From assembly GCA_015134315.1 (NCBI GenBank), contig CP043973.1, positions 25,611-89,610 on the forward strand: a stretch of 64,000 nt of DNA, read 5' to 3'. This document shows positions 1-64,000 of this stretch, piece after piece (the first letter of the stretch is position 1; every line of letters starts with the position of its first letter). The position numbers and the translations under genes are program-made. This stretch comes from Candidatus Stammera capleta (GTDB lineage: Bacteria; Pseudomonadota; Gammaproteobacteria; Enterobacterales; Enterobacteriaceae). Under the pieces are notes generated by a model. That model searched no databases and was not told the origin of the DNA. It worked only from the letters and a program-made list of their open reading frames with translations.

Positions 1-4
1 AACT

Positions 5-877
5 TTATTTAAAATTTAAATTTTTTCTTTTAATAATTAAAATATTATTTTTTATATTTTTTGTTTTAATAAATTTATAATTTATTTTTTTATAATATTT
101 TATGATTTTATTTTTTTGATGACCTACTTCGCATATTAAATAACCACCTTTTTCTAAATATTTATATGAATTTTCAATAATTTTTTTAATTAAATATAAA
201 CCTTTATTTTTAGATATAAGAGATTTTTTAGGTTCATATAAGTATTCTTTTGGTAAAAATTTAATTTCTTTTTTATTTACATATGGCGGATTAGTTATTA
301 TTAAATTATATTTTTTTTTGATATTTTTAAATAAATTTGATTGAATTAGTTTTATATATTTTTGTTTATTATGTAAATAAATATTTTTTTTTGCAACTTT
401 TAATGTTTTTGAACATATATCTGAAGCATCTATTTCAGAATTTAAAAATATATATGAACATATTATAGCTATACATGCACTTCCAGTGCATAAATCTAGT
501 ATTTTTAAATTATTATTATTATATTTAATTATATATTTTAATTTATTTAAAAAATTATCATTAATGTGGCTTCTTGGTATAATTGATCTTTTATCAATAT
601 AAAATTGTTTTTTGCTAAATCATACTTTTTTAGTTAAATATACTATAGGTATTTTATATTTTATTCTTAATTTTGCTAAATATTTTATTTTATTTAATTT
701 ATTTTTATTTATTTTAATTTTATAATATTTTTTATATATATTTAATTTTAAAATAGAATATATTAAATGTATAGATTCAGTATATGGGTTATAAGTACTA
801 TGACCATAAAATAAATTATGTTTATTAAATAATTTTGTATATTTTTTTATTATTTTATATAAAATTATATTTTTCAT
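5..877 (-). CDS. prmB: Ribosomal protein L3 glutamine N5-methyltransferase (PrmB/YfcB type)
   Basis: ORF 620..877 continues through TGA (620-622) with no TAA/TAG down to TAA at 5-7 (290 aa). Motifs DLCTGSACIAI, NLIITNPPYV (NPPY), IIPRS and GGYLICEVGHQ match E. coli PrmB better than PrmC. Confidence 0.85.
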
Positions 878-935
878 ATTATTATTATTATAATATAATA
901 GTATAAATAAATAATATATTATATATTATTTATAT

Positions 936-1016
936 GCGGAAGTGGCGAAATTGGTAAACGCGCTAGAATTAGAATCTAGTTATTTTAAGATACGAGTTCG
1001 AGTCTCGTCTTCCGTA
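936..1016 (+). tRNA. leuW: tRNA-Leu (anticodon UAG)
   Basis: Cloverleaf GCGGAAG...CTTCCGT with discriminator A. Anticodon loop ATTAGAA gives UAG. Long variable arm and T-arm ACGAG/CTCGT. Close to E. coli leuW. No encoded CCA. Confidence 0.9.
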
Positions 1017-1045
1017 ATTAATGTTACATTTAATTTATTAAGTTT

Positions 1046-1116
1046 TGGGGTATAGCCAAGTGGTAAGGCATCGGGTTTTGATCCCGAGATCCCAGGTTCA
1101 AGTCCTGGTACCCCTG
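1046..1116 (+). tRNA. tRNA-Gln (anticodon UUG)
   Basis: TGGGGTATAGCCAAGTGGTAAGGCA...GGTTCAAGTCCTGGTACCCCTG is nearly colinear with E. coli tRNA-Gln. Anticodon stem TCGGG/CCCGA, loop TTTTGAT gives UUG. Discriminator G. No encoded CCA. Confidence 0.9.
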
Positions 1117-1125
1117 TTTTAAAAT

Positions 1126-1200
1126 AGCTACGTAGCTCAGTAGGTTAAGAGCACAGCACTCATAAAGCTGAGGTCACAGGTTCAAATCCTGTCGTAGCTA
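1126..1200 (+). tRNA. tRNA-Met, elongator type (anticodon CAU)
   Basis: AGCTACGTAGCTCAG...CTCATAA...GGTCACAGGTTCAAATCCTGTCGTAGCTA closely matches E. coli metT/metU. It lacks the initiator features (C1:A72, GGG/CCC anticodon stem). A lysidine-modified tRNA-Ile2 cannot be strictly excluded. Confidence 0.82.
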
Positions 1201-1227
1201 ATTTAATTTAAATTTTATATTAATAAC

Positions 1228-3688: not shown

Positions 3689-3776
3689 ATTTTATTATAT
3701 CAATATATTTAAATTTTATAATTTATAAATATATTGTAATTTTATTATATATAAATTAAAATATATAATTTATGAA

Positions 3777-4172
3777 TTGTATTTATTTAATAATATTAAG
3801 AAAATGTATATTTTTTTCGGTAAAATAAAAAATTTTTATAAATTATTTTTAATGTTTATATTGTTATTTTTTATATTTTTATTAAATTATTATTTTATTA
3901 AATTACATATAATATTAAATTTAGTATTTAATATATTAATTTATTTTGTTTTTTTTTCTATTATTAAATCTTTATTTTGATTTAAATATTTTATTATTTT
4001 TTTAAAAGAATCTAAAAAAGAGCTTTTATTGGTTAATTGGCCTTCATTTTATGATGTTATTAAAATTGTTTTAATAGTTATTATATTTAGTTTTTTAATT
4101 TCTTGAATAATATGATTTATTGATATAATTATATTATATACTTTAACTTTATTAAGTAATGTGAGATTATAA
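3777..4172 (+). CDS. secE: Preprotein translocase subunit SecE
   Basis: ORF 3777..3980 continues through TGAs to TAA at 4170-4172. The C-terminal FLKESKKELLLVNWPSFYDVIKIVLIVIIFSFLISWIIWFID matches the SecE signature (FxxExxxELxKVxWP plus TM). Sits directly upstream of nusG. The start is uncertain: TTG at 3777 or ATG at 3804. Confidence 0.8.
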
Positions 4173-4173
4173 A

Positions 4174-5210: not shown

Positions 5211-5873
5211 ATGAAAAAAAATATTAGATATAATAAAGATAATATTTTAAATAATTTTATTAATATTTTTAATAATATTAAAAATAAAAATATTAAAAGA
5301 AATTTTATTGAATCTATTGATGTATCTATAGTTTTAGATATAGATTTTAAAGATATTAATCAATATATTTTAGGAAAAACTACATTACCTCATAATAATG
5401 GTAAAAACTATAAAATAGTTATATTAGATAATGATTTAAATAAAGATAAAGCATTATCATGAGGTGCTTATGATGTGTTAAATATAAATGATTTGATTAA
5501 TAAAAAAAAAGTTATTAATTATGATATAGCTATTATGAAGCCAAATAATATTAAATATATAAATAAAATATCTAATATATTTGGTAATAGTTGTATTTTG
5601 CCTAATATTAAATTAGATACTATAACTAATAATTTAAAAGACACAGTTTATGATTTTTTAAATGGTAAAATTATATATAGAAATGATAAATTTGGTGTTA
5701 TAAATTTATGTATAGGGAAAATTAATTTTGATAGTTATAAATTAGCAGATAATTTATTTGTATTATTAAATTCAATTAAATTATATAAATCTAAATTTAT
5801 TAAAAAATTTATATTTATTAAAAAAGTTTATGTTTCTAGTACTATGGGTAAAAGCTATATAGTTAAAATATAA
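5211..5873 (+). CDS. rplA: 50S ribosomal protein L1
   Basis: Track ORFs 5211..5462 and 5475..5873 are in one frame joined through TGA. FIESIDVSIVLDID, TLPHNNGK, YRNDKFGVINLCIGKINFD and VYVSSTMG align with E. coli L1. Confidence 0.95.
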
Positions 5874-5921
5874 TTATGATATTATTAATTAAATTTTAAA
5901 AATTTATTTTAGGTAATATTA

Positions 5922-6419
5922 ATGTTATTAAAATTTAAAGATAAAAAAAGAATAGTTTGTAAACTTAATAATGATTTAATTAATTGTATATCTATAGTTT
6001 TAGTTAGTTTTAAAAATATTTCATGTAATTATTTAAATAATTTAAGAAAAGAAATTTATAATAATAATTCTTACATGACGGTTTTAAGAAATAATTTATT
6101 TAAATTATCTATTAAAAATACTAGTATAAATTTTTTAAGTAAATTTATAAAAGGTCCTAGTATAATTTTTTATTCTTGTAAAGATATTAGTAATATATTA
6201 AAAATATTATATTATAATAATAATAATTATAAAGATAATTTCTTTATAAGAAGTTTAGTATATAAAGGTAAATGTATTTCTTTAAGACTTAAAGATAAGT
6301 TAATTAATTTAAATAATTTTAAAAAATCTATTTATTATTTTTGTTTTTATATAAAAAATATAACTATTTTAAAATTTTTAAATATATTATTGAAATTAAA
6401 AAATTTGTTAAGTAATTAA
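5922..6419 (+). CDS. rplJ: 50S ribosomal protein L10
   Basis: Divergent but colinear with the E. coli L10 N-terminus (LKFKDKKRIV..., LRKEIYNNNSYMTVLRNNL, GPSIIFYS). Lies between rplA and rplL. Confidence 0.85.
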   Translation: MLLKFKDKKRIVCKLNNDLINCISIVLVSFKNISCNYLNNLRKEIYNNNSYMTVLRNNLFKLSIKNTSINFLSKFIKGPSIIFYSCKDISNILKILYYNNNNYKDNFFIRSLVYKGKCISLRLKDKLINLNNFKKSIYYFCFYIKNITILKFLNILLKLKNLLSN

Positions 6420-6440
6420 TTTTATAAAGAATATAAACAT

Positions 6441-6815
6441 ATGAAACAAATAACTAAAGATCAAATATTAGATACTATTTCATCAATGTCTTTATTAGAA
6501 GTTATTGAATTAATAGACGCTATGGAAAAGAAATTTGGTATAAGTAATAATGTTAATTTAAATTATACATCTAATGATAATGTTGTTATTAAAAAAGAAG
6601 AAAAAAATGAATTTGATTTATATTTAAATTCTATTGGTAAAAATAAAATATCTGTAATAAAAATTATTCGTAATTATTTAAATATTGGTTTAAAAGAATC
6701 TAAGGATTTAGTTGATTCTTGTCCTGTATTAATTAAGGAGAAAATTAATAAAAATGATTTAGATATATTGAAAAAATCTTTAGAAGATGCAGGAGCTATT
6801 ATTGAAATTAAATAA
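6441..6815 (+). CDS. rplL: 50S ribosomal protein L7/L12
   Basis: N-terminal ILDTISSMSLLEVIELIDAMEKKFG and C-terminal GLKESKDLVDSCP...LEDAGAIIEIK. Confidence 0.92.
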   Translation: MKQITKDQILDTISSMSLLEVIELIDAMEKKFGISNNVNLNYTSNDNVVIKKEEKNEFDLYLNSIGKNKISVIKIIRNYLNIGLKESKDLVDSCPVLIKEKINKNDLDILKKSLEDAGAIIEIK

Positions 6816-6851
6816 AATTATTTTTTATTTTTAATATAAATTGGGAATTAT

Positions 6852-10865
<4,014 letters not shown>

Positions 10866-10909: not shown

Positions 10910-15112
<4,203 letters not shown>

Positions 15113-15159
15113 TATTTAATAATATTTAATAAAATATGTTTTTAATTAATTTTTATTAT

Positions 15160-16161
15160 ATGAAAAATAAAGATACATTATTTAGTGCTATTCAACCTAC
15201 AGGTAATATTACAATAGGTCATTATTTAGGTATATTAAAATTATGAAAAAGTTTACAAAATAATTATAATTGTCTATATTGTATAGCTAATTTACATTCT
15301 TTAAGTATTTTTAATAAAAAAAATATTATTAATTTAAATATATATAATTTAGTTTCTTTTATTTTAGCTTCAAATATTAATCCTTATAAATGTATAATTT
15401 TTTTACAATCAGATATTATAGAACATCTTAAATTATATTGAATATTAAATTGTTATACATATATAGGTGAATTAAATAGAATGACACAATTTAAACATAA
15501 ATCTAAAGGTAAGTTTAATAATAATTTATCTTTATTAAGTTACCCAGTATTAATGGCTTCAGATATATTATTATATGATTCTAAATATGTATGTATAGGT
15601 TATGATCAAATACAACATATAGAATTAGTTAATAATATATCTAAAAGATTTAATAAAAGATATAAAAGTGAAATTTTTACTTATCCTAAATTTATTATGC
15701 ATGAACAATTTTATAAAATTATGTCCTTATTAAATTATGAAAAGAAAATGTCTAAATCTGATATTAATAAAAATAATGTTATTTTTTTGTTAGATAAAAT
15801 TGAATTAATAAAATACAAAATAAATAATTGCATAACTGATAATGATAATCCTCCTAAAATAATATTTGATATTAAGAATAAGCCAGGTATTTCAAATTTA
15901 TTAAATATATTATCAGGTATTAAAAATGTTACTATTAAATCTTTAGAAGAATATTTTGAAAAATGTAATTATAAAAAATTTAAAGATATATTATCTAAAG
16001 AATTGTGTTATTTTATTAAAAAATTACAGAAAAAATTTTATTTTTATAGAAAAGATGAAAATTTAATTAAAAATATATTATTAAATGGAAAAAAAAAACT
16101 TAAAAATATTGCTAAAAATAAAATAAAATATGTTAATAATATATTAAAATATGAATTTTAA
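15160..16161 (+). CDS. trpS: Tryptophan--tRNA ligase
   Basis: MKNKDTLFSAIQPTGNITIGHYLG (HIGH region) and KMSKS (KKMSKSD). 333 aa versus 334 in E. coli. In frame with track ORF 15481..16161. An in-frame ATG at 15136 is a less likely start. Confidence 0.95.
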
Positions 16162-16167: not shown

Positions 16168-16818
16168 TTATCATTTTATTTGTTTTATATTATTTTGTTT
16201 TAAAATTTTATTTATTTTAATAAAATGTTTACATCCAAAAAATCCTTTATTAGCAGATAAATTAGATGGATGTGATGAATATAATATTATATGTTTTTTT
16301 TTATTTATTAATAATGATTTTTTTTTTGCATTATATCCTCATAATACAAATATTATTTTATTTAAATATTTATTTATATATAATATTATTCTATTAGTAA
16401 AAATTTCTCATCCTATATTTCTATGAGAAAGAGGTTTATTTTCTTCTACAGTTAATATACTATTTAATAATAAAATTCCTTGTTTAGTTCATTTTTTTAA
16501 ACATCCATGTTTTGGAATATTAAATTTAGGAAACTCATTTTTTAATTCTTTATATATATTTTTTATACATTCAGTTAATTTAATATTTTTATTAATTGAA
16601 AAGGCTATTCCATTGGCTTGATTTTTTTTATAGTATGGATCTTGTCCGATTATTACTACTTTTATTTCATTAAATTTTGTCAAATTAAAAGATGTAAATA
16701 TTTTATTTTTTTTAGGAAATATATTTTTAGTGTTATATTCTTTTTTTAATATTTTAATTAAATTAATAAAATATTTTTTATTTTTTTCTTTATTAAATAT
16801 TTTTTTTCATGTAATCAT
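16168..16818 (-). CDS. ung: Uracil-DNA glycosylase
   Basis: VVIIGQDPYY, GILLLNSILTVEENK, VLWGYNAKKK and SSHPSNLSANKGFFGCKHF are colinear with E. coli Ung. The frame was traced from ATG 16818 to TAA 16168-16170 through several TGA codons. Confidence 0.93.
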
Positions 16819-21362: not shown

Positions 21363-23150
21363 TTAATTGAATTTTAATATTTTAGAAAATATTTTATTGT
21401 TTATATAAACATGTCCTATATTTTTCATTTTTTTTTTTCCTAATTTTTGTTTTTTCAATAATTTTTTTTTTCTACTTATATCACCTCCATAGCATTTTGA
21501 AATTACATTTTTTCTTAAAGCTTTTATATTAGTTCTATATATAATTTTATTATTACATAATATTTGTATAGTTATATTAAATAATTGTTTATTAATATAT
21601 TTTTTTATGATATTAATTACTCTATTACTTTCTGTTTTTAGGTTGTTTTTATGTATGAATTTAGATAATCCATTAATTATTTTATTATTTATAGCTATTT
21701 TGAATATAATAATATCTGATTTTTTATATTTATAAAATTTATAATTATATGAACAATAACCTTGAGTAATAGATTTTAATTCATTACTTAAACTAGTTAT
21801 TATTTCTAAAAGAGGAATTTTATATTTTAATGAAATATTATTATTTTTATTTATATATTTATAATTTTTTAATTTTCCTCTTTTTTTATTACATATACTA
21901 ATTATATTACTTAAATATTTATTATTAGATTTTATATAACATATTACTACAGGTTCTTTAATATATTTAATATTTTTAATTAAATCAATTTTATCTGCAT
22001 TATTTATATATATATATTTATTATTTTTAGTTTTAATTTTAAAATTAACTATAGGGTTTATTATATTTATATTAGAATTATATTCTCTTTTAAGCCTTTC
22101 TTTAATAATTTCTATATGTAATATTCCTAGAAAACCACATTTAAATCCAGATCCTAATATTATAGATTTTTCTATTTCATATGTTAAAGAAGGATCGTTT
22201 AATTGTAATTTTTGCAATGATTTTTTTAAATGATTAAAATCGTTATTTTTTTTTGGATATATACTAGCGAATATTTGTGGTTTTACTTGTTTAATTATTT
22301 TTTTATTATTTATTTTATTGTTATTATTATAAATTAAACTTCCTATTAAATTTTTTTTTATTTTTTTAATTTTACATGTTATTCAACCAACTTCTCCACA
22401 ATTTAATATTTTAATATTTTTTTTATTTGGTATATTAATAATAATTTTTTCTATATTATATTTTTTTTTAATATTAAATATTTTTATAGTATCATTTAAT
22501 TTTAAAACTCCTCTTTTTATTTTTATTAGCAAAAAAGCACCTAAATAGTTATCAAAATATGAATCAATAATTATAGCCAATAAAGGTTTATTAATATTTA
22601 ATTTTGGACATGGTATTATTTTTATGATATTTTTTATTATTTTTTTAATTCCATAACCTGTTTTTGAAGAACATAAAAAAATTTTTTTTTTATAATTTAA
22701 TTTTTTTTTTATTTGTTTTATAATTGTTTTTATTTTTATATTTTTAATATCTATTTTGTTTATTATAATTAAAATTTTTAATTTTAACTTTTTTGCTATA
22801 TTATAATTATTTAATGTTTGTGATTGTATTCCTTGTGTTATATCTATTAGTAATATAGCTCCTTCACAAATATATAACGATTTGGATACTTCATATGAAA
22901 AATCTATATGACCTGGAGTGTCAATTAAGTTTAATTTATAAATTTTATTTTTATAATTAAATTTTAGATTTACACATTGAGCTTTTATTGTAATTCCTTT
23001 TTCTTTTTCTAAATCCATATTGTCTAATATTCTTTGTTGATTTTTTGCCAATTTTTTTTTTGTACATATTTCTATTATTCTATCTGAAAATGTTGATTTT
23101 CCGTGATCTATGTGTGCTATAATACAAAAATTTCTTATATATTTTGTCAT
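21363..23150 (-). CDS. lepA: Elongation factor 4 (LepA)
   Basis: NFCIIAHIDHGKSTFSDRI and LIDTPGHIDF. Two track ORFs are in one frame and the gap was traced with no TAA/TAG. 595 aa versus 599 in E. coli. Confidence 0.97.
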
Positions 23151-28563: not shown

Positions 28564-28592
28564 GATAATAAATTTATATTAATTATATTAAA

Positions 28593-28678
28593 CGGAGGTA
28601 GAGAGATTCGAACTCTCGAACGAAATTATCGTTTACGATTTTCAAGATCGTCGCCTTAAACCTCTCGGCCATACCTCC
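28593..28678 (-). tRNA. serT: tRNA-Ser (anticodon UGA, reads UCN)
   Basis: The reverse complement GGAGGTATGGCCGAGAGGTTTAAGGCGACGATCTTGAAAATCGT...GAGAGTTCGAATCTCTCTACCTCCG is colinear with E. coli serT. Long variable arm. No encoded CCA. Confidence 0.9.
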
Positions 28679-28685
28679 AATTTAT

Positions 28686-34612: not shown

Positions 34613-35524
34613 ATGTTAATTAAATTTTTAGGTACTAGTGCTGGTTGTCCTACTTTAAAAAGAAATGTATCAAGTATAGCGTTTATTTTAAATAATCCTA
34701 GTTATGAAATATGATTATTTGATTGTGGTGAAGCTACTCAACATCAAATTTTAAAATCTTGCATTAAGATAACGAAAATACGTAAGATTTTTATTACTCA
34801 TTTACATGCTGATCATATTTTAGGACTTATAGGTTTATTAACTACAATATCAATAAATAAATCAAATAATTTATTAGAAATTTATGGTAGTAAAGGGATA
34901 AAAAAATATATTAAATGCTCATTAAAATTTACTAATTCATATATTAACTATCCAATCAAGATATATGAAATTAAGGAAGGGGAAATTTATAATAATGGAA
35001 TTTTTAAAGTAAAATGTTTTATATTAAATCATATTATAGAAAGCTATGGATTTTATATTAAAGAATTAAATAAAAAAGGTTCTTTAAATGTAGATAAATT
35101 AATTTTAGATGGAATTTTTCCTGGTCCTATATATAAAATAATTAAAAATAATGAAAATATTATATTAGATGGTAAAAAAATTAATTGTTGTAAATATATT
35201 AAAAATATAATTAAAGGAAAAAAAATTGTTATATTTGGAGATACATCACCTATAAAATTATATAATAAAAATTTATTAAATTGTGATTTATTAATTCATG
35301 AAGCTACTTTACATCATAAATATAAAAATATTGCAAATCAAAGAGGTCATTCTACTAATATACAAGCAGCTTATATAGCTAAAAAATATTGTGTTAAAAA
35401 ATTAGTAATAACTCATTTAAGTGCTAGATATAATTATAATGATTTAAAATATATTTTAAAAAGTTGTATTAAAGTATTTCCTAATACATTTATTGCTTAT
35501 GATTTTTATAGTTTTAAAATTTAG
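34613..35524 (+). CDS. rbn: Ribonuclease BN / RNase Z
   Basis: Not in the ORF track because there is one early TGA and no later ATG. The full frame was translated by hand: MLIKFLGTSAGCPTLKRNVSSIAF...WLFDCGEATQHQIL...ITHLHADHILGL (HxHxDH)...FGDTSP...HEATL...RGHST...ITHLSARY. It is colinear with E. coli RNase BN. 303 aa, TAG stop. Confidence 0.9.
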
Positions 35525-35632: not shown

Positions 35633-36142
35633 ATGAAAATTGGTATATTTTATGGTAGTAGTACAGGTAATACAAAAAAAATATCTTATTTAATATATAC
35701 TAAATTAGTCAAATATGTTTATTGTAAGATTTTTAATATATCTGAAATAAATTTAAGTGAATTTAATAAATTTGATATTTTAATATTAGGTACATCTACT
35801 TGATATTATGGAAGATTACAATTTGATTGATATAATTTTTTAAATTATAATAAAAATATTATTTTAAAAAAAAAAATTATATGTTTTTTTGGTTGTGGAA
35901 ATAAATTAAATTATAGTTATACTTTTTGTGATGGTTTGTATTATTTATATAAATCATATAATAAAAATAATACAATTATTGGATATTGAAATAATATATA
36001 TAAATTTAAAAATTCTAAATCTTTATTGTGTAAAAATTATTTTTTAGGTTTAGTTATAGATGATAATAATAGTTATAAAATAAATAATAAAATTATAAAT
36101 ATATGGCTATCTAATTTTTTAGTATATTTATTTAAAATATAA
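35633..36142 (+). CDS. fldA: Flavodoxin 1
   Basis: MKIGIFYGSSTGNTKKIS, ILILGTSTWYYG, FFGCGN, GLVIDDNN and the C-terminal KIINIWLSNF are colinear with E. coli FldA. Three TGA-Trp codons plus one TGG. 169 aa. Confidence 0.9.
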
Positions 36143-46527: not shown

Positions 46528-47748
46528 TTAATAATTTTTTCCTTTAAATATTTTTTTAGTCTTATTCTTAATTTTTTTAATTATATATTTAATTTTTTTT
46601 TGTTTATTTGTTTTTTTTATGGTATTTCTTATATTAATTTTTTTTAAATTACATTCTTGATCACCACATATTATTATATAAGGTATTCTATGTAAAGTAT
46701 ATTTACGTATTTTAAAATTTATTTTTTTATTTTCTATATCTATTATTGATCTTATAAAGTTATATTTATTTAAAATTTTGAATATTTTTTTACAGTAAAT
46801 AATATTTTTTTGTGATATATTTAATATAACTATTTGTATTGGAGTTAATCATATAGGCAATCATCCTTTGTTTTTTTCTATTAATATGCCTACAAATCTT
46901 TCTATAGATCCTAATATAGCTCTATGTATTATAATAGGATTTTTTTTAATATTATTTTTATTTATATAATTAATTTTTAATTTTTTTGATAAATTAAAAT
47001 CTATTTGTATAGTTCCACATTGTCATTTTTTATTTTGTTTATCTTTTATAATAAATTCTATTTTTGGTCCATAAAATGCTCCTTCTTTATTATTAATTTT
47101 AAATTTAATATTTATTTTATTTAAAATATTTATTAATTTATTTGTTATATTATTTCAATGTTTTTTTTTTCCTAAATATTTATCTGGTCTAGTTGATATA
47201 TATACGTATATATGTTTAAATTTGAATATTTTATATATTTTTTTAGTTAAAATTATACATTTTATGATTTCTTCTTTAATTTGTTTTAGTGTACAAAAAA
47301 TATGAGCATCATCTTGTGTAAATGATTTTGTTCTCATTAATCCATATAAAGAACCTGATGGTTCATTTCTATGACATATACCAAATTCAGATATTTTCAT
47401 AGGTAAATCTTTATATGATTTTATGTTATTTTTAAATATTTCTATATGACCTAAGCAATTCATAGGTTTTAAACATAATTTAAAATTTTTTTTTATATAA
47501 AATATATAATTTTTATAATATTCTCAATGTCCGCTTGTTTTTCATATTTTTTTAGGTATTAAATGTGCTGTTTGAACTTCATAATATTTATTTTGTTTAA
47601 GTTTTTCTTGAATTAATTTTTTAATTATATTTACAATTATTAATCCATTTTTATTTCAATATATTATTCCAGGATTATTTTTTTGTATATGAAATATTTT
47701 TATATATTTATTAATTATTCTATGATCATTATTATTTAAATTATTCAT
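46528..47748 (-). CDS. thrS: Threonine--tRNA ligase, catalytic core and anticodon-binding domain only
   Basis: The protein starts MNNLNNNDHRIINK, equivalent to E. coli RDHRKIGK at about residue 240. KPMNCLGH, GICHRNEPSGSLYGLMRTKSFTQDDAHIFC and YIIICGDQE. The frame was traced with no TAA/TAG. 406 aa. An in-frame TAA lies 3 codons upstream of the ATG. Confidence 0.93.
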
Positions 47749-47850: not shown

Positions 47851-48384
47851 ATGTCTTTTAGTAATCATTTAATTTTTTCTTTATTTTGTTGTGTTATATT
47901 TATTAAATATTTAAATATAAATTTTAATATAAATTTATTAAATTTAATTATATCTTGTTTGTTTGTTAGTTTATTACCAGATATTGATCATAATAATTCA
48001 TTTATAGGTAGTAAATTTAAATATATTTCATATTATATATTTAAATATTTTGGTCATAGAAATATAACTCATAGTTTTATATTTTTATATTTATTATATA
48101 TATTTATATTTCATTATAAATATTTATATTATTTAAATATTGATATTAGTGTTAAATATGGTATTATTATAGGTTATTTAAGTCATATATTAGCAGATAT
48201 GTTTACAATAAAAGGTGTAAATATTTTTTGACCTTTAAATTTTAATTTTAAATTTCCTTTTATATATATAAAAAGTAAAAAATTGGAATATATAGTTTGT
48301 ATATATTTGTTATTTATTTCTATTTTTTGAGAAAATTTAATTTGTATATTAAAAATTTTATTTAAAAATATTTATATAATTTAA
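47851..48384 (+). CDS. Membrane-bound metal-dependent hydrolase, YdjM/YbcI (DUF457) family
   Basis: LLPDIDH, GHRNITHS and SHILADMFTIKGVNIFWPL in a multi-TM protein of 177 aa. Confidence 0.7.
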
Positions 48385-48386: not shown

Positions 48387-51300
48387 ATGTTTATATTATA
48401 TCAATCTAACGATTTTAAATTACTTAAACATATGTTTTTATATGTTTTAAAAAAAAATAAATTTAATAATTATAATAATAATATTATATTAATATCTAGT
48501 AGTAATATATCTTTAAGATTAAAAATTTTTTTTAGTAAATATTTAAATGTATTTGCAAATTATCAATTTTTATTAACTGCAAAATTTGTATGAAATTTAT
48601 GTAAAATTTATTTTAGTGATATATCAGATATAAATTATTTTAGCAAAATAAATTTATTTTTTATTATATTAAATTTATTACCTAAATTAATTAAAGATAA
48701 ATATTTTTTAAAAATAAAAAATTATTTAAATAATGATTTACATTATAATAAATTATTTAATTTATGCTATAAAATAGCAGATTTATATGATAAATATATG
48801 GTTTATAGACCTTATTTATTAATAAATTGAGAAAAAAAAATATTAGATAAAGAAATAAATAATGATAATCAAATATGGCAATCTATTTTATGAAAGAAAA
48901 TTATTAATTTTTATTTATTAAATTTTAATTGTAAATTATATAGATCTAAAATTTTAATTAATTATTTAAATATTTTAAAAAAAAAAAATATATTTAAGAA
49001 TTATTATAAAGATATTTATATATTTAATGTTTATAATTTACCTCCATTATATTTAGATATTATTTATTTTATATCTAAATATATTAATATTCATTATTTT
49101 ATTATTAATCCATCTAAAGAATATTGATATGATATTAATTATTTTTTTAATATTAATAATAGTTTATATGAAAATAATTTTAATTTAAATAATATAAATT
49201 CAATTTTATTATATTATGCAAAAATATTTGCTGAATATTTATATATTATTTTAAGTTATAATAATTTAATTCAAATAGATTATTATAATATAATTTTTAA
49301 AAAAAATATTTTAAATTGTGTTAAAAATAATATTTTATATTTTGATAATTGTAAGTTTAATTTATTAAATAAGTATAATCTTAAAGATAATTCAATAATA
49401 ATTAAATGTTGTTATGGATACTTAGATGAAGTATATAAATTAAGAAAATTTCTATTAAAATTAATTATAAAGAATAATTACAAATGTAAAGATATTATTG
49501 TAGTAGTTACAGATATTAAAAAATATTTATTTTATATTAATTTAGTTTTTTTAGGTTATAAATATAATAAAATTATTCCATATTTAATTTTAGATAATCA
49601 TTATACCAATGATAATAATATTATTTTTAAATTTTTATTAAAATTATTAAATATTAAAAATATTGATTTAAATTTATGTTATTTTTTAAATTTACTTAAA
49701 AATAATATTATTTTGGAAAAATTTAAAATTAATGATAACGAATTAGATATTTTCTTAAATTTAATTAAAGATATATCTTTTTTAAGAGATATTAAAAATT
49801 TTGTATTTAATAAAAAATTATTTAAAAAGTATAATTATACATCTATTATTGATAATATTAAAAATTTATTATTAGGTTATGCAATAAATAAAAAATTTTA
49901 TATGTGAAAAGATATTTATAGTTATCCTTTATTAGATAGCGATTTTATGTATAATTTAATTGGTAAATTTTCTGATTTAATATTTAAAATATTATACTGG
50001 AAGAATGTTTTTAGTAAAAAATATTTTTTAAATAAATGAATTTTATTATATTATAAAATTATAAATGATTTTTTTTCTTATAATTTAATTAATAATTATT
50101 TTTTTTTAAATACAAATTATTTAAATAATATATTATATAATTTTAAAATTATAAATTTTAAAAAAAAAATTAACAATTTAGTTTTTATAAAAATAATAAA
50201 TATATTGTTTAAAAAAAAAAAAAGTTATAAACAATATTCTATTAATTGTATAAATTTTAGTTCTTTTTTACCTTTAAGATCTATGCCATATAAAATTATT
50301 TGTATATTAGGCATGAATTCAAATGTTTATCCTAAAAATACATTTAACTATAATTTTGATTTAATGTATTTATATCCTAAAATAGGTGATAGAAATAGAT
50401 TAGAAAACGAAAAATATTTATTTATGGAATATTTTTTTTATTCACAAGATATATTTTATGTAAGTTATATTAATACGTCATTAAATAATAATAAAAAATA
50501 TTTTCCTTCAATATTATTAGATATTTTTATAAATTATATTAATATTAATATAATTTATTTAAAAAAATTTAGTTTTGTTAATTGTAAAATTGCAATTAAG
50601 AACAAAAAATATTTAAAAAAATATAACAATAAATTATTAAATTATAATTTTAATATTATATATAAAAATAGAAATATTTATCTTAAAGATATTCATAATT
50701 TTTGATTTAATCCAATAAAATATTTTTTTAATAATTCTTTAAAAATATTTTTTTATGAAAATATTAATTTAAATATAAATAATTATTTTTTAAATTATAA
50801 TATAAAAAATTTTTATATTTTTAAAAAAAAGATAATTAATAATTTGTTAATTGGTAAAAAATTTAATAAAAATTTTTATTTATACTTACAATTATTTAAT
50901 TTAATCCCTTTAGGAAATTTTGGTAAAATTATATGACAAAAAGAATTATTTAATATAATGAAATTATTTAATAATATTAATAAATTATCATGAATTAGTA
51001 ATGAATATAAATTTTGTATATTGATTGATAATAATTATATAAATGGTATTATTAATTTAAATGATAAATTTTGTCATTATAAATATTTACCTAAAAATTT
51101 AAATTTAATAGATAGTTTAATATTTTGAATAAATCATTTAATATATTGTGCATTAGGTTTTAATAAAAATAGTTTTTTATATGGTTATAATAATAAATTT
51201 ATATTTAAAAAATTAGATATTCAATTATCTAAATATTTATTATCTTTTTATATAAAAGGTTTTATATATGGTTCTAAAGATCCTTTATTATTTTTACCAA

Positions 51301-51560
51301 AATTAAGTAATTATATAATTAGTAATATGTATGATTTTGATAATAATAAATTATTAAGTAATTATAAAATTAATAATCTAATATTTTTAAAATTAAAATA
51401 TTTAATTAATAATAAAAATTATTTATTTTATGATTTAAATGATATTTATATTAATTATTTAATAAAATATAATTATATTAAAAATATTAATGTAATTATT
51501 GATAATTCTAAAAAATGATTGTTACCTATGTTAAAATATACTAAAATAAAAAATTATTAA
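48387..51560 (+). CDS. recC: Exodeoxyribonuclease V subunit gamma (RecC)
   Basis: MFILYQSNDFKLL and ADLYDKYMVYRPYLLINWE compare with E. coli MLRVYHSNRLDVL and ADLFDQYLVYRPDWLAQWE. Every codon of the 1057-aa frame was checked with no TAA/TAG. All four track pieces are in phase. Confidence 0.9.
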
Positions 51561-51563
51561 ATA

Positions 51564-54500
51564 ATGAATATTTTTAATTATTTAAATAGTATTATATATA
51601 GAAGTAATTTAATAGAATCTTCTGCTGGTACTGGAAAAACAAATATAATTTCATTATTATATTTAAGATTTTTATTAAATATTAATATAGATAAATATTT
51701 TTCAAATTTATCTATTAATAATATATTAATAGTAACTTTTACTGATTTAGCAGTTTTAGAAATTAAAGATAGAATATTAAATAATATAAGAGATTTAAAA
51801 CAATCATGTATAAAAAATTATTGTGTTAATGATAATATAAATAATATTTATAAATACATAAAAAATATATTTAATATAACTAATTTATTAATTCAATTAG
51901 AAAATAATATTGATTCTATTTCTATATTTACAATACATGGATTTTGTAAAAAAATTATTTTTAACTATTTTATTGAATTTAATATTAATCCTAATTCTAA
52001 AATTTTGCCTGATGAATATAATTTAATTTATGAATTAGTTATAAATTATTGGTATAGTTATATATCTACTTTAGATGAAAAAATAATATTAATAATATTA
52101 AAATATTGAAATAATTATACTTATTTATTTAATGATATAATAAAAATTTATAATTTTAATAAAATTAAGTATAATTTTGATACAAAATTATTTTATTCTA
52201 TTAAAAATTGTTATTTAGATACTTTAAATTATATAAATTTTTTTAAAAAAGAATGATTACTAAATAATAAAATTTTATATAATTATTTATTAGAATTTAA
52301 AAAAAAAATTTTTAGTTTAAATTATTTAAATAAATTATTTAAAGATATAAGTTTTTGAGCTAATAAAAAAACATTAGATTTTAATATTCCTAAATATTTA
52401 TATAAATTAAGTTATAAATATTTATTAATTAATTATAAAAATTATTTTTTAATTAATAATTATATGTTTTATTATATAGATTTTTTATTATTTAAAATAA
52501 ATAATTTATATAATTATATATTATTAGATTGTTTAAAATTTATTAAAATAAATATTAAATTAAAAAAAGATGAAGAATCTTTAATTAGTTTTAATGATTT
52601 AATAACTAAATTTAATGTATTTTTAAAAGATAAAAATAATATAATTTTTATAAATCATATAAGAAAAATATTTCCTGTGGCATTAATTGATGAATTTCAA
52701 GATACAGATATAAATCAATATTATATTTTTAATAAAATCTATATTAGAAATAAATCTGAAATTAAAACTAAAATAATATTAATTGGTGATCCTAAACAAT
52801 TAATTTATTCTTTTAGAGGCGCTAATGTATTTAGTTATATGTATGCTAAAAATAATGTTGATTATATATATACTTATAATATAAATTGGCGTTCTTCTTA
52901 TATATTAAATAAAAGTATTAATTATATATTTACTAGAATTAAAAATTTTTTTTTATATAAAAAAATATTTTATGTAAAATTAAAGTCTAATATAAATAAT
53001 AAGAAATTATGTATTAAAAAAAACAAATTAATTGATTATTCTATTAAATGTCATATATTTGATAATATAAGTTATAATAATATTAAGTATAATTTAGCTA
53101 AATATTGCGCTATTAAATTAATTAAATCATTAAACGATAAAAATAAATATATTTTAGATAAAAATAATAATAAACGTAATTTAATTTTTTCTGATTTTTG
53201 TATATTAGTTTATAGTAATTCAGATATTAAAATTATTTTAGATGTTTTTAATAGTTTTAATTTACCTATTTATCATATTGATATTAAAGATAGTATTTTT
53301 AATTCATCTGAATCTAAAGATATAATATATATATTAAAATGTATATTATTTCCAACATCTAAAATAAATATTAAAAATATGTTATTAACTTATTTATTTG
53401 GTTATAATATTTTTAATATTAATAATTATATAAATAATAATTTTAATTTAAATAATTTTATAGAGGAAGTGTATTTCTATTATGATTTATGAAATAAATA
53501 TGGAATATATTATATGTTTAAATATATTGTAAAAAAAAAAAAGAAATACATTTATAATAATATTAATTATAATCAATATATTATTAATATATTTCATTTA
53601 TCAGAGATTTTACAATATATGTATTTAAAGTTTAATAATAAATTTTTATTATTAAAATGATTAGAAGATAAAGTTATTTATAAAAAAGATATATTTAAAG
53701 AAAAATATTATCTTAGATCTTATTTTTATAATAAAGAATCTATTAATATTTCTACAATACATAAGTCTAAAGGTTTACAATATAATATTATTTGAATGCC
53801 TTTTTTAATAAAATTAAGAACTTATAGTAAATTTTTTTATTATTATGATCGTAAGAATTTTATTTTTAATTTAGATTTATATAAAACTTATTATGGAAGA
53901 TATCTAATGATAGAAGAAATGCTTTCGGAAGAAATTAGATTATTTTATGTGTCAGTTACAAGAGCTATATATCAATGTAATATTTTAATATATGGTTATA
54001 ATAATATTAATAAAATGTTTAATAGTGTTTATATAAATAATATTTTTGGTATATATAAAAAAAATAGTTTTATAGATTTAAAAAAATATATTAAATTAAA
54101 TTTTTATTATAAATATATATTAATAAAATTTGTTAATATTAATAAATATTTTAATTATAAAAATTTATTTATTTATAAATATAAAAAAGATAAATTAAAT
54201 TTTAAAACTAAAGAAATAAATATTAAAAATAATAAAAATATTTTAAGCTATTCTAATATAAAAGAAAAAATTATTAATTTAAAAAAAATTAATATTACAA
54301 AAGATAATTTAAAAAATAATATTTGTTTACCAAGAGGAAAAAATATAGGTAATTTTTTTCATAATGTTATAGAAAATATTAATTTTAATAATTTTAATTA
54401 TGATATAAATTTTTTATTATATAAAATAAAAGAGTTTAATATTAATAAAAAATATTTTTTTTTAATTAAAAATATTATATTTAATTTATTAAATGTTAAA

Positions 54501-55061
54501 TTTAAATATTTAAATATAAATTTATGTAATAGAAATATTTTAAATTTATATAAAGAATTTAATTTTTTTTTATATATTCATAAAAAGTTTAGTTTTAGTA
54601 ATTATTTAAAAATTATTAATAAATATGATTTAATTTCTAAAAAATGTAATAATATTGATTTGAATTTTAATTTTTATGGTTTTTTAAATGGTGTAATTGA
54701 TTTAGTTTTTAATTATAAAGATAAATATTATATTATAGATTTTAAAACTAATTGAATAGATTATCATTATTCTTTATATAATAGTAAAAATATGTTTAAA
54801 TTAATGTGTAAAAATAGATATGATATACAATATCAAATATATTCTTTAGCATTGCATAAATATTTAATAATGAAATATAAATATTATAATTATAATAATA
54901 ATTTTGGTGGAATATATTATATATTTTTAAGAGGTATATTTTTAAATACTAATAATAATAGTTTTACTGGTATATATTTTATTAGACCAAAATTTAAATT
55001 AATTTATAAATTAAGCAAATTTTTTAAAAAAAAAAATGTTTTATGAAAAATTAATAAATAA
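51564..55061 (+). CDS. recB: Exodeoxyribonuclease V subunit beta (RecB)
   Basis: Helicase motifs ESSAGTGKT, ALIDEFQDTD, IGDPKQLIYSFRGA and TIHKSKGLQYNIIW. Nuclease motifs GVIDLVF...YYIIDFKTNW and DIQYQIYSLALHKYL. The track stop at 55044-55046 is TGA, so under table 4 the gene ends at TAA 55059-55061. Confidence 0.93.
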
Positions 55062-56859
55062 ATTTTTATTAAATTCTTATAAAAAAAAATATATGAAGTT
55101 AATAGATATAAATTTTTCTAAATTATTTTATTTAAAAAATGATAAAAATAGTTATATTTATATGTTATTTGCTTCAATATTAAGTTTATATAATAGATTA
55201 GGCAATATGTATTTATTTTTAGATAATTTTTTTATAAATAATATTTATTTATCTGAATACATTTTAAATTTTTTATATTATTTTTTTAAAAATTTTATTT
55301 CTATAGAAAATTGTGTAAATTTAATGTTAAATTCTAACATTATAAGTTTATGATTTAATAAAAGATGTACTCCGTTTATTTTATATAATGATTGTATATA
55401 CTTATATAAAAATTGATATTATGAAAATTATATAGTAAAGTATTTAAATAATAATATTTATTTAAAGATAAGTAATAATTTAAATTTAAAAAATTTATAT
55501 TTTTATTTTAATGAATTTAATATTAATTTAAATTTAAAAAAAATTATTTTAAGTTCAATTTATAATAAATTTACTATTATTTCAGGATCAGCTGGTACTG
55601 GTAAAAGTACTTTAATTATTAAATTAATTATTTTATTATATAAATTATTTGATTATAAAAATAATAAAAATATTATTTTATTATCACCAACTGGTAAGTT
55701 ATCTTCTTGATTAACTAATAATTTAAATAATATTTATGATATTTTAAATATTAATAAAAAATTTAAATCTATTTTACCTAATAAATGTTTTACTATTCAT
55801 AAATTTTTAGGTTTTAATTATTTATATAATTATATAAAATATAATAAAAATAATAAAATATTATCTAATTATATTATTATAGATGAATGTTCAATGATAA
55901 GTATAAATATTTTTTATAATTTATTATCATCTTTAAATAGTTATACTAAATTAATATTAATAGGAGATTATAATCAATTAGGATCTATAAATTCTATATC
56001 TATATTTAATGAGATATGTAATTCAATTTTTAATAAATTTTATATGAAAAATAATTTTAATTATTTTATATATTATAAAAATATATTTATATTAAATAAA
56101 AATTATCGTTATATAAATAATAATAAAAATATAGGTATATTTTTGAATATAATTAAAAATAAAAATTTTGATTTATTAAATAAATATTTATTTGATAATT
56201 TTTTATCTAATATAAAATTTTATGATTCTAAAAAATTAGATTATAATGCATTTATAAATTTATGTATTAAATTTTATAAAAATTATATAGAATTTATTAT
56301 TGAAGACTTTATTAAAATAGATAAATTATTGGAAATTTTCAAAATAAATCAAATTATTTGTGTTCTAAAACATAGTGATTATGGAATTAATATTATTAAT
56401 GAATTAATTAATAAATATATATGTAGTATAACTAAAAGTAGTAATTTATATTATTCTAACAATAGAATATATTTTATAGGAGAACCTATTTTAGTGACTA
56501 AAAATAATAATGATTTAAAATTATATAATGGTGATTTAGGATTTTTTATAATTGATAAAAATAAAAAGTTACGTTTATATTTTAATAAATTATGTTATTA
56601 TTTACATCCTTTTATGTTATATAATTGAATTAATTCTTGGTGTATAACTGTTCATAAATCCCAAGGATCGGAATATAATAATATTTTATTTGTTTTGCCT
56701 AATAAATATATTGATATATTAAATTATAATTTAATATATACAGCTTTAAGTAGAGCTAAAAAAAAAATTATTATTTATGGTAATATTGATATATTAATTA
56801 ATAGTTTAAAAATAAATATTAATAAAAATACTAATATAATAAAAAGATTAAAAATTTAG
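55036..56859 (+). CDS. recD: Exodeoxyribonuclease V subunit alpha (RecD)
   Basis: ISGSAGTGKST, IIIDECSM, LIGDYNQL, ITVHKSQGSEY and YTALSRAKKK. 607 aa versus 608 in E. coli. Overlaps recB by 26 nt. TAG stop. Confidence 0.92.
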
Positions 56860-56876: not shown

Positions 56877-57581
56877 TTAATATTTAATTATATATATACA
56901 TATTAATTCTATATCATTTCAATATAGTTTATTAAACATTTTATAATTTTTTTCATATTTATAAAATATTTTTAATATTTTTACTGTATTTAATATTTTA
57001 TTATTATTAATATTTTTAATAAAATTTTTAAATAATATATTTAATATTAATATTTTATCTACATTTAGATTTTTAATATTTTTTATTATATTAAAAATAT
57101 TTTTTAATTTTTTATTGTTTATATTATTAATTAATTGATTTATTATTTTGTTTACTTTATTTAAAAATACGAATTTGTTTTTTTTATTTAATTCTATTAA
57201 TAATATATTTTTGTTTTTATTTATATAGTATTTATATTTATAAAATATTTCAAAAAAAAATATTATATATATATTTTTTGTTATAAATTTTAATATATAT
57301 TTATTAAATATATTATTAATATCTTTGATATTTTCTATAATATTTAAAATAAATATTTTATTTTTAGATATTATATTTTCATTAATTATTTCTTTTATAA
57401 TTAAATTTCATTTAAATTTTTTGTTTATAAAAAAATTATATTTTATTATATTTTTATAAGTATTATTAATATTATTTATTATATATTTTTTAAGTTTATG
57501 TTTTTTTTTTGTATTATTGCCTACTATACAATATATATTATATATAATATTTTTATTTATTATTAATTTATATTTATGCAT
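56877..57581 (-). CDS. holA: DNA polymerase III subunit delta (HolA), shortened
   Basis: A 234-codon frame checked end to end, 8 nt downstream of leuS. NIYCIVGNNTKKKHKLKKYIINNI and KWNLIIKEIINENIISKNKIFILNI align with E. coli AAYLLLGNDPLLLQESQDAVRQVA and DWNAIFSLCQAMSLFASRQTLLLLL. The call rests on these two blocks plus synteny. Confidence 0.55.
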
Positions 57582-57589: not shown

Positions 57590-60112
<2,523 letters not shown>

Positions 60113-60335
60113 ATTTAATTATTTTTTATTATCTTTGTAATTAAATTATTATTTATATATTTAATTCTATTACATATAAGATATTTTTGAATTTTAAATT
60201 TTATAATTATATTTTTTATATACTTATTTATTATATTAATAATTTTATTTAATTTGTTATTATTTTTTTTATTATATATTATATTTTTATTTTTTTTCAT
60301 ATTACTATTATTCATATTTTATGTTTTATTTAAAT

Positions 60336-61811
60336 TTATTTTATCTTATTTTTTTTATATTTTATTATTATTATAGAATAGTTTGGTGTTTGGATTTTTT
60401 TATTAGGTATAATAATAGTTTTAATATTTTTTTTATTTATATTATATAAAAAATTTTTTTTTTTGTTTAATATATAGTAAGCTATATTAATAGGAGCTGT
60501 AACATGTATTTCTTTTATGTTTTTTTTAAGAGATTTTTCTTGTATAATTCTTAAAATTAAGAATGATAAAGATTTATTATCTCTTATTATACCATTACCT
60601 TTGCATCTTGGACAAATATAATAACTTGATTCTTTTAGAGAAAGGTTTAATCTTTGTCTAGACATTTCTAATAAACCAAATTTTGATATATATCCAATTT
60701 GTGTTTTAGCTTTGTCTTTATTAATTATTTTTTTAAATTTTTTTTCTACTATTTTTTGATTTTTTAATATATTCATATCAATAAAATCTATAACTATTAA
60801 TCCTCCTAAATCTCTTAATCTTATTTGTTTAGCTATTTCTTTGGAAGCTTCTAGGTTAGTATTTAAAGCTGTAATTTCTATATTTTTTTCTTTATTATAT
60901 TTATAAGAATTAACATCTATTGATGTTAATGCTTCTGTAATATCTATTGTAATTAAGCCACCAGAAGGTAATCTAACTTCTCTATTAAACGCTGACTCAA
61001 TTTGATTTTCTATTTTAAAATAAGAGAATAATGGTATTTCTTTTTTATAAAATTTTATTTTTTTCAATATTTCTGTTTTATTCAATTTTTTAATATAATT
61101 TATAGCTGATATATATGTTTTATAATTATCTATTATTATTTCTTCTATATCATTATTTAAATATTCTCTAAATATTCTTATAAAAATATTATTTTGTTGA
61201 TATATTAAAAATGGATATTTTTTTTTTTTAAATGTTTTTTTTATATATATTCAATTTTTTAATTTTGATGATAAATCTGATTTAAATACATTAATAGATT
61301 GTCCTAATCCTGAAGTTCTGATTATTAATCCCATATTTTTAGGTATTTTTAATTTTTTAATAATTTTTTTTATTTTTTTTCTTTCTTTTCCTTCTATTTT
61401 TCTTGATATTCCTATAATATTATTATTATTATTTGGCATTAAAATTAAATAATTTCCTATTAAATTTATAAATGTACTTAAAGTAACTCCTTTTTTATTT
61501 ATTTGTTCTTTAGTAATTTGTATTATTAATTCTTGACCTTTATATAAATTATTAATATTATTATTTTTTTTTTTAGTAAAATATTTAGGTGAAATTTCTT
61601 TTAAAGGTAAAAATCCAAATTTTTTTTCTCCATAATCTATAAATACTGCTTCTAAACTAGGTTCTATTCTGATAATTTTACCTTTATAAATATTATATTT
61701 TTTTTTTATATATTTATTATTTTCTATATTTAAATCATATAGTTTTTTATTATTTATTAATGCTATTCTAAGTTCTTCTTTTTGAGTAGCATTTATAAGC
61801 ATTCTTTTCAT
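60336..61811 (-). CDS. rne: Ribonuclease E, N-terminal catalytic half only
   Basis: MKRMLINATQKEELRIALINNKKLYDLNIE, YKGKIIRIEPSLEAVFIDYGEKKFGFLPLKEI, LPSGGLITIDITEALTSIDVNS and CPRCKGNG. Divergent from rluC as in E. coli. 491 aa. Confidence 0.93.
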
Positions 61812-61926
61812 ATAATTTTAATTTATAATAACTTATTTAATTATTAGTATATAATGTATTGTTGATTAATTAATATTTTTATAATATTTTATATATAATT
61901 TTTATATTAAAATTTGATATAATTAT

Positions 61927-62898
61927 ATGTATAATAAATTTTTTATAAGTTTTTTAAAAGTTACTTTATATGATGTTAATCAAAGATTAGATAATTTTTT
62001 ATTTAAAAATATTAAAAGTTTGCCTAGATGCAAAATATATTCTTTGATTAGAAAAGGAAATATAAGAGTTAATAATAATAGAAAATCTTATAGATATAAA
62101 TTACAATTTAATGATATTTTAAGAATACCTTTAATATATTTAAATAGTAATAAATTCTTATATCTTAGTAAAAATATTATATATAAATTTACAAATAATA
62201 TTATATATGAAGATAATTATTTAATATTAGTTAATAAATATTCAGGTATTAGTGTGCATAGTGGAAATAAAGTTAAATATAATTTAATTGATATTTATAG
62301 ATCATTAAAATTAAATAATTATTTAAATTTAGTACATAGATTGGATAAATATTCTTCTGGATTATTATTGATTTCTAAAAATAGAGAAATATTAATTAAC
62401 TTAAATAATCAATTTAAAAATTTAAGTATTATTAAAAAATATTATATATTAGTATGTGGTGTTTGACCTAAAGATATTTATAAAGTTAATAATTTAATTT
62501 ATAAATATAAAGATAAAGGTTATATTATGAATAATAATAAAAAATATTTAAAAAATATAAAATTAAAATGATCTTTAACTTATTTTAAAATAGTAAAAAT
62601 TATTAATAATTTTACATTATTAAAAGCTTATCCTATTACTGGAAGATTTCATCAAATTAGATTACATGTAAGTTATTTAGGTTATCCTATTTTATTTGAT
62701 AATTTATATGGAAATAAATATTTAAATAATAAATTTTATATTAATAAAATTAGTAGATTATTTTTACATTGTAATTATATATCTTTTTATCATTGTATTT
62801 TAAAAAAAAGATTAATTTTTAGTATTAAATTAGAAAATGATTTATGTTATATATTAGAATATATAAAAAATAATAATATTATAAAACAAGGAGATTAA
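61927..62898 (+). CDS. rluC: 23S rRNA pseudouridine synthase RluC
   Basis: S4 domain (RLDNFLFKNIKSLPRCKIYSLIRKGNIRVN), VHRLDKYSSGLLLISK and TGRFHQIRLH. 323 aa, joined through TGAs. Confidence 0.92.
62888..62893 (+). promoter_or_regulatory. Shine-Dalgarno sequence (AAGGAG) for rpmF
   Basis: AAGGAG lies inside the last codons of rluC, 7 nt upstream of the rpmF ATG (62901). Confidence 0.55.
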
Positions 62899-62900
62899 TA

Positions 62901-63074
62901 ATGGCTGTTCAAAAGAGCAAAAAAAGTAAATCTAAAAGAGGTCATAGAAGATCTCATAATTATTTAAGATTACCTGTATTATTTTTTGATAAAAATATTA
63001 ATGAATATGTTTTATATCATCATGTTAGTAAAAATTATTTAATTAATAAAAAAAAAAACAATAATATTAGATAA
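62901..63074 (+). CDS. rpmF: 50S ribosomal protein L32
   Basis: MAVQKSKKSKSKRGHRRSHNYL compares with E. coli [22 protein letters not shown]. 57 aa. Confidence 0.93.
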   Translation: MAVQKSKKSKSKRGHRRSHNYLRLPVLFFDKNINEYVLYHHVSKNYLINKKKNNNIR

Positions 63075-64000
63075 AAAAAATTTCTTTATTTATTTTTAAT
63101 GTTAATAAACTGAATAAATATATAAATATACTATATATTAGTATTAATAATATTTTTATAATTCTTTCATAAATGTTAAATTTTATAAAATTAATTTCTA
63201 AGTTATTAATTAATTTATTTAAAAATATAAATATTAGTAAATTAGATATAAAGATCTTAATTATAAATTTTTTTCATTTATATACATGTTTAAACATTTT
63301 TTTATTTATTAATTGTTTATATAATAAAATACAATTTATATAAGATGCTATCATCATAGATATTGATATACCTATATATTTAAATATTTTTATTGTAAAA
63401 ATATTTATTATTTGTGAAAATATTAATATAAAAATAGATATTTTATTAGGTATATTAATATTTTGTTGAGAGTAATAACATGATATAAATATTTTATTTA
63501 ATAATAAAGTTGTAAATCCTATAGAATATATAATTAATATTTTAGATGTCATAATTACATCTAAATATTTAAATTTTCCATATTTAAATAATAATATTAT
63601 TAATAATTTTGATAATTTTATTAAAAATATTGATATAGGTATACTTATTATTAATATTATTTGTATATATTTTTCTACTAATTTATTATATTGATCTATA
63701 TTTTTATTATTATATTTATTTGATAATTTTGATAATAATAAGGTTCCTGTCATTGTTCCTAATATACTTAGTGGTAATTCTATTATTTTATCAGCATAGT
63801 ATATTCATGATATAGATCCTTCTTTAAAATATGAAGATAAATTATTATTAATAATTTGTGACGTTTGATATATTAATACACTTAATATAGTTGGTATAAA
63901 TTTTTTAATAATTTTAAATATTCCTTTATGAAAAAAATTTACTTTATTAATATTAATATTAATTTTAATTTTTTGAATATATATTTTTTGTATTGTTAGT
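63067..64000 (-). CDS. murJ: Lipid II flippase MurJ (3' part; the 5' end lies beyond the window)
   Basis: GSISWIYYADKIIELPLSILGTMTGTLLLSKLS, LFKYGKFKYLDVIMTSKILIIYSIG and YYSQQNINIP are colinear with the C-terminal half of E. coli MurJ. The frame is open to the window edge. TAA at 63067-63069. Confidence 0.9.

Follow-up and report, generated by a model that had tools for sequence, protein, structure and literature searches.

In-frame TGA codons in the 64-kb window

Candidatus Stammera capleta is a gammaproteobacterial symbiont of tortoise leaf beetles (Cassidinae), which is extracellular and degrades pectin. We analysed the use of the codon TGA in a 64,000-nt window of its chromosome (CP043973.1, assembly GCA_015134315.1, positions 25,611–89,610), for which an initial annotation had proposed that TGA encodes tryptophan (genetic code 4) in an Enterobacterales-type gene set with an operon order like that of Escherichia coli. 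The window has a G+C content (GC) of 14.5% and carries 51 protein-coding genes and four tRNA genes, and reading TGA as Trp makes 95.5% of its length coding. The 51 genes were delimited as intact genes under translation table 4, and were named from NCBIfam, or from position and homology. The proposed gene order is borne out by several E. coli-type operon fragments, i.e. the tRNA Leu-Gln-Met genes beside miaB-ybeZ-ybeY, secE-nusG-rplKAJL-rpoBC, era-rnc-lepB-lepA and pheST-rplT-infC-thrS. The tRNA genes and a selection of the protein-coding genes are listed below, where a single position denotes the first nucleotide of a codon.

935..1201 (+): cluster of tRNA-Leu(UAG), tRNA-Gln(UUG) and tRNA-Met(CAU), located 5' of miaB, like leuW-glnU-metU of E. 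coli
1228..2556 (+): miaB, tRNA ms2i6A37 methylthiotransferase; the TGA codons at 1255 and 2359 each correspond to Trp in E. coli
4174..4725 (+): nusG; two TGA codons, one of them at 4201, on E. coli Trp; ends with TAA where nusG of a related Stammera genome (L019, see below) has TGA
6852..10865 (+): rpoB, 1337 amino acids; three TGA codons (7386, 9255, 10662), each matching an E. coli Trp
10910..15112 (+): rpoC, 1400 amino acids, GTG start; seven TGA codons, at 11009, 11408, 11618, 12137, 12647, 12965 and 13961, six on E. coli Trp and one on Leu; TGG at 11255 on E. coli Trp
15136..16161 (+): trpS, tryptophan--tRNA ligase; two TGA codons (15244, 15439), each matching an E. coli Trp
16168..16818 (-): ung; the codon directly preceding the TAA stop (16168-16170) is a sense TGA (16171-16173)
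21363..23150 (-): lepA; single TGA (22383-22385) on an E. coli Trp column
28592..28679 (-): tRNA-Ser (UGA anticodon)
34613..35524 (+): rnz/rbn, RNase Z/BN; ends with TAG
35633..36142 (+): fldA; three TGA codons (35801, 35828, 35987) and one TGG (36104), each aligned with Trp of E. coli
48387..51560 (+): recC; 11 TGA codons, nine on E. coli Trp, and two TGG codons on Trp
51564..55061 (+): recB; eight TGA codons, seven of which could be aligned and fall on E. coli Trp without exception, while that at 55044-55046 lies in the unaligned C-terminal tail
55036..56859 (+): recD; four TGA codons, TAG stop
57590..60112 (-): leuS; 19 in-frame TGA codons, 16 on E. coli Trp

Under table 4, the 51 genes contain 154 in-frame TGA and 12 TGG codons, with TGA making up 154/166 (93%) of the Trp codons and at least one in-frame TGA in 41/51 genes (80%). 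All ten TGA positions which the initial annotation had listed for miaB, nusG, rpoB and rpoC lie in frame with the peptides quoted there, those at 11408 and 12647 in rpoC come in addition to that list, and its remark that TGG is still used was found to be correct for both rpoC (11255) and fldA. The base following the in-frame TGA codons is unbiased relative to all codons. When tables 11 and 4 are compared, the number of stop-free open reading frames (ORFs) of at least 500 amino acids is one with table 11 and 11 with table 4, while dropping TAG rather than TGA from the stop codons causes no change.

With regard to termination, 49 genes end with TAA and two with TAG (rnz/rbn at 35522-35524 and recD at 56857-56859), in agreement with the stop codons given for these genes before, and TGA ends none of the 51. 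The gene lengths at these TAA and TAG ends match those of the orthologues, and termination never relies on UGA. Three TGA codons are located near a C-terminus, in ung, recB and ydjM (48328-48330), and none of the three marks the end of the orthologous protein. The TGA directly preceding the ung stop codon was considered as a fossil stop and rejected: the orthologous codon is TGG in two Stammera genomes without in-frame TGA (L019, CP144774.1, and L020, CP144793.1) and Trp in E. coli, which identifies it as a codon for Trp instead of a leftover stop.

Residues aligned with TGA

The 51 proteins were compared by tblastn with 13 regions of the E. coli K-12 MG1655 genome after every TGA had been translated as X, which avoids presuming Trp. 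From this alignment it is clear that the TGA codons coincide with Trp, as 101 of the 121 aligned TGA codons (83%) fall on an E. coli Trp, with approximately 1.4 expected from the 1.15% Trp background (binomial log10 P = -175). The nine aligned TGG codons are all on E. coli Trp (9/9), and when the aligned E. coli residues are tabulated by codon, every other codon is found on its standard amino acid. The initial annotation had stated that the TGA codons sit on conserved Trp positions, and had named a lack of enrichment at Trp columns as the result that would speak against recoding; the enrichment is strong instead. In this window UGA is a sense codon for Trp, and indeed the main Trp codon, and genes end only at UAA or UAG.

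Two alternatives can be assessed with the same columns. The first is that the TGA codons are genuine stops, in which case the genes they interrupt would be pseudogenes left by genome decay; pseudogenes are common in tiny symbiont genomes, and table 11 does break almost every long gene. The interruptions are, however, exclusively TGA and never TAA or TAG, they are not accompanied by frameshifts, 83% of them are on Trp columns, they are conserved between strains differing at 10-25% of residues, and they are found in essential genes such as rpoB, rpoC and those for aminoacyl-tRNA synthetases and ribosomal proteins. We consider this explanation vanishingly improbable, and refuted by the combination of Trp-column alignment, conservation between strains and the presence of TGG at the same positions in relatives. 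The second alternative is that UGA specifies another amino acid, either Gly (code 25), Cys or selenocysteine (Sec), for which there is precedent: UGA encodes Gly in the Gracilibacteria and Absconditabacteria and is the Sec codon elsewhere. Among the 121 aligned TGA codons, Gly is found at none and Cys at one, against Trp at 101; for Sec, 154 sites in housekeeping proteins are incompatible with such a role, and tRNA-Sec and selB are reported to be absent from Stammera genomes (PMC13462651). The aligned columns refute this option as well, and its probability is, if anything, still closer to zero than that of the pseudogenes.

Stammera relatives, the course of the switch and gene content

The window RpoB, translated with table 4, is 100% identical to an NCBI protein encoded on a contig of 258,283 bp, and has approximately 40 further matches at 63-86% identity, which are located on contigs of 212-326 kb. 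Below this Stammera-like set, the first named matches belong to symbionts of reed beetles (Donacia, Plateumaris). Identity of RpoB is 86% with CP144843.1 (L001) and 83% with CP024013.1, and the gene order of both agrees with that of the window. CP024013 is Candidatus Stammera capleta (PMC9543054), while CP144843.1 belongs to the accession series of CP144853.1, which at 325.6 kb is one of the size extremes of Stammera, the other being CP043989.1 at 212.7 kb (PMC11842425). A chromosome of approximately 258 kb and a window GC of 14.5% also fit the range of 0.21-0.34 Mb and 13.9-20.4% GC given for Stammera genomes (PMC13462651), which are reported to fail the quality control of GTDB and to be absent from it (bioRxiv 10.64898/2026.05.24.727570). 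This absence accounts for the lack of any match when an exact 41-mer from rpoB of the window was scanned against a collection of genome contigs. The RpoB identity and the collinearity with named Stammera genomes show that the window is derived from a Stammera capleta strain, and the nearest relatives suggest a host from the Cassida group.

The comparison with Ca. Stammera capleta of Cassida rubiginosa (CP024013.1; Salem et al. 2017) shows the same code 4 and an identical gene order over the 24 kb compared, consisting of dnaE, rpmBG, a peroxiredoxin gene, holB, prmB, tRNA Leu-Gln-Met, miaB, ybeZ, ybeY, secE, nusG, rplKAJL, rpoBC, trpS, ung, a FUSC-family gene, era, rnc and lepB. It is nevertheless a different strain, as shown by the RpoB identity of 83% and by a chromosome of 271,175 bp versus 258,283 bp for the window strain; its GC is 15.9% versus 14.5% in the window, and its TGA/TGG ratio is similar (39/4 in 21 genes).

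We also counted TGA and TGG in the same approximately 20 genes of further relatives (18-20 genes for L019 and L020). In L001, L015, L017 and L018 there are 32-39 TGA versus 0-8 TGG codons, and between the window and L001 there are 26 conserved TGA/TGA pairs, a single TGG/TGA swap and four TGA/TTA changes. The picture is very different in L016 (CP144790.1, GCA_036689315.1), where 20 genes contain only one in-frame TGA versus 29 TGG codons, and in L019 and L020, where in-frame TGA is absent versus 31 and 41 TGG codons, respectively. These last three genomes agree with the window in local gene order and in their orthologous Trp positions, and differ from it in a higher GC (19-21%); the window TGA corresponds to TGG 22 times in L020, 20 times in L019 and 13 times in L016. 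The sole TGA of L016 is in lepA (21859-23655), on a conserved Trp column that is also TGA in the window, and L016 looks like an early stage of recoding. In L019, nusG (7286-7837) has a TGA stop exactly at the E. coli NusG C-terminus, beyond which readthrough would be stop-free for at least 10 further codons. The L019 and L020 lineages still use code 11. A basal Stammera clade with code 11 and a retained prfB has been reported, with GCA_036689315.1 singled out as a code-4 genome beside it (bioRxiv 10.64898/2026.05.24.727570), and our TGA/TGG series independently reproduces this published picture of a switch that arose within Stammera.

Gene content differs along the same loci. While murB is located between ybeY and secE (approximately 5600-6980) in the more basal L016-L020, it is absent there from L001 and L015, and in the window a 115-bp spacer is left (3689-3803), with murJ still present. 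Similarly, tatD is found between holB and prmB in L016, L017, L019 and L020, but not in L001, L015 or L018. At these places the window has lost both murB and tatD, which L016, L019 and L020 still carry.

The recoding reported here is real and was read correctly, but it is already known for this organism and is not new: the use of UGA as a Trp codon by Stammera was described in 2017, and code-prediction benchmarks have included it from 2021 on. PMC10540940 lists Stammera among the endosymbionts with a stop-to-Trp reassignment, citing Salem et al. 2017; Stammera is given as a code-4 organism in Table 1 of a 2021 study, with Codetta inferring UGA to be W (PMC8629427); and a study of 50 genomes used code 4 to annotate all Stammera genomes, again citing Salem et al. 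2017 (bioRxiv 10.1101/2023.12.12.571295). The cases of UGA reassignment named in the initial annotation (Mollicutes, Hodgkinia, Zinderia, Nasuia) did not include Stammera. On the practical side, the window needs table 4, as 41 of the 51 genes are broken up by table 11.

Taken together, it is almost certain that the window is part of a Stammera chromosome of approximately 258 kb, from a lineage that uses code 4. Nothing in the window contradicts this, and three points qualify it. Firstly, 20 of the 121 aligned TGA codons are on non-Trp E. coli residues (often Leu or Phe, also Ala, Gln, Arg and others) or on gaps, although these columns are mostly in poorly conserved stretches, as is expected at 20-45% identity. 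Secondly, prfB, which encodes release factor 2 (RF2), is annotated in 15 of 49 Stammera assemblies (PMC13462651 Table 2). Thirdly, prfB, prfA, lysS, recJ and a tRNA-Trp gene are all absent from the 64-kb window, its four tRNAs being Leu, Gln, Met and Ser.

The second of these would also fit a transitional or leaky state, in which RF2 is kept and UGA is partly read through by tRNA-Trp(CCA), making the codon ambiguous rather than fully reassigned. Some of the assemblies with prfB are code-4 Stammera (PMC13462651 Table 2; bioRxiv 10.64898/2026.05.24.727570), and the single TGA on a conserved Trp versus 29 TGG in L016 indicates that early recoding states do exist in this clade. For the window itself we regard a leaky state as very unlikely: TGA accounts for 93% of its Trp codons and affects 41 of 51 genes (with three TGA codons in rpoB, seven in rpoC and 19 in leuS), competing termination would make full-length leucyl-tRNA synthetase vanishingly rare, and no window gene ends with TGA.

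The 51 genes of the window comprise prmB, miaB, ybeZ, ybeY, secE, nusG, rplKAJL, rpoBC, trpS, ung, a YccS-like transporter gene, era, rnc, lepB, lepA, gltX, ligA, clsA, ybgI, tsf, rpsB, map, speD, glnS, pfkA, rnz, fldA, pgk, fbaA, pmbA, ppa, pheT, pheS, rplT, infC, thrS, ydjM, recC, recB, recD, an ORF at the position of holA, leuS, rne, rluC and murJ, together with two weakly assigned ORFs, a hydrolase with a sub-threshold match to the YghX family and a membrane protein. The latter (40600-41346, -) is 248 amino acids long, contains six TGA codons and matches the MAG0110 family only below threshold, while the ORF at the holA position beside leuS (56877-57581, -; 234 amino acids) has no NCBIfam match. 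There are no rRNA genes in the 64-kb window.

The thrS gene (46528-47748, -) encodes only 406 amino acids, covering positions 169-564 of the 565-position profile of threonyl-tRNA synthetase (ThrRS), and its N-terminal region appears to be missing; in E. coli the N-terminal region of ThrRS includes the editing domain. The rne product (60336-61811, -) is 491 amino acids long versus 1061 in E. coli, and consists of the N-terminal catalytic half only, with the C-terminal scaffold absent. A complete recC-recB-recD cluster without ptrA (48387-56859, +) is present in this 258-kb genome, in which recB and recD overlap by 26 nt. In the 20,343 codons of the 51 genes, CTC and CGG are never used, CGC once and CTG twice, with AAA, AAT, ATA and TTA together accounting for 45% of codons.

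Reading of UGA and comparison with other recoded bacteria

Since the window contains neither prfB nor the tRNA-Trp gene (trnW), the loss of RF2 and the anticodon of tRNA-Trp are taken from papers on other Stammera genomes. One Stammera genome has been described as lacking prfB and having an unchanged trnW (CCA), with UGA in 62% of genes (PMC10540940 Table 2), and in a second study tRNA-Trp(CCA) was present and tRNA-Trp(UCA) absent, with UAA accounting for 88-97% of stop codons (PMC13462651 Table 2). The initial annotation had regarded an intact, expressed prfB together with a tRNA-Trp with only the CCA anticodon as an argument against recoding; this does not apply in that form, as Stammera is reported to be CCA-only yet uses code 4 (PMC10540940, PMC13462651), and the CCA anticodon alone does not refute recoding. 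The anticodon stem of this tRNA is reported to have the normal 5 bp (PMC13092985). In seven related loci, our scans for tRNA genes detected the Leu-Gln-Met cluster alone, without a tRNA-Trp.

Based on this literature, the following course can be proposed. RF2 would have been lost or disabled, leaving no termination at UGA, and the sole tRNA-Trp, with its CCA anticodon and ordinary 5-bp stem, would read UGA by mispairing C with A at the third codon position. At Trp positions, TGG may then have been turned into TGA under the strong AT mutation pressure reflected in the GC of 14.5%. That recoded Stammera hold a specific, as yet undescribed adaptation for reading UGA is possible but rather doubtful; candidates are a Hirsh-type change in the D-arm of tRNA-Trp (positions 9 or 24), a dependence on the ms2i6A37 modification by MiaB/MiaA, or a change in the ribosome. 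The miaB gene is retained in all eight Stammera loci (the window, L001 and L015-L020) despite genome sizes of 0.26-0.33 Mb, and it is only speculation that MiaB-dependent modification of tRNA-Trp helps in the reading of UGA. The presence of code-11 (L019 and L020), near-TGA-free (L016) and recoded (window) genomes within one named species provides a natural series in which such an adaptation could be sought.

Finally, we compared the window with other bacteria reading UGA as Trp. Candidatus Zinderia insecticola, a betaproteobacterial symbiont of spittlebugs, is similar in having code 4, a GC of approximately 13.5%, a lost prfB and a tRNA-Trp with the CCA anticodon (PMC10540940 Table 2). It belongs to a different class, however, has a much smaller gene set than Stammera, and its tRNA-Trp(CCA) has a 4-bp anticodon stem which has been proposed to enable the reading of UGA, in contrast to the 5 bp in Stammera (PMC13092985). 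Hodgkinia cicadicola, Nasuia deltocephalinicola and the Mycoplasmatales share the change of UGA to Trp together with the loss of RF2, but have the cognate tRNA-Trp(UCA) (PMC10540940, PMC13462651), which Stammera is reported never to have (bioRxiv 10.64898/2026.05.24.727570). Providencia siddallii PSAC, a leech symbiont, is also a member of the Enterobacterales which uses UGA as Trp with tRNA-Trp(CCA) only (PMC10540940). It represents an early stage, with UGA in approximately 20% of genes versus 80% in the window, and has kept prfB, albeit containing a UGA; partial readthrough of UGA in the presence of RF2 has been proposed for it, and some of its genes may still stop at UGA (PMC10540940), whereas none do so in the Stammera window.

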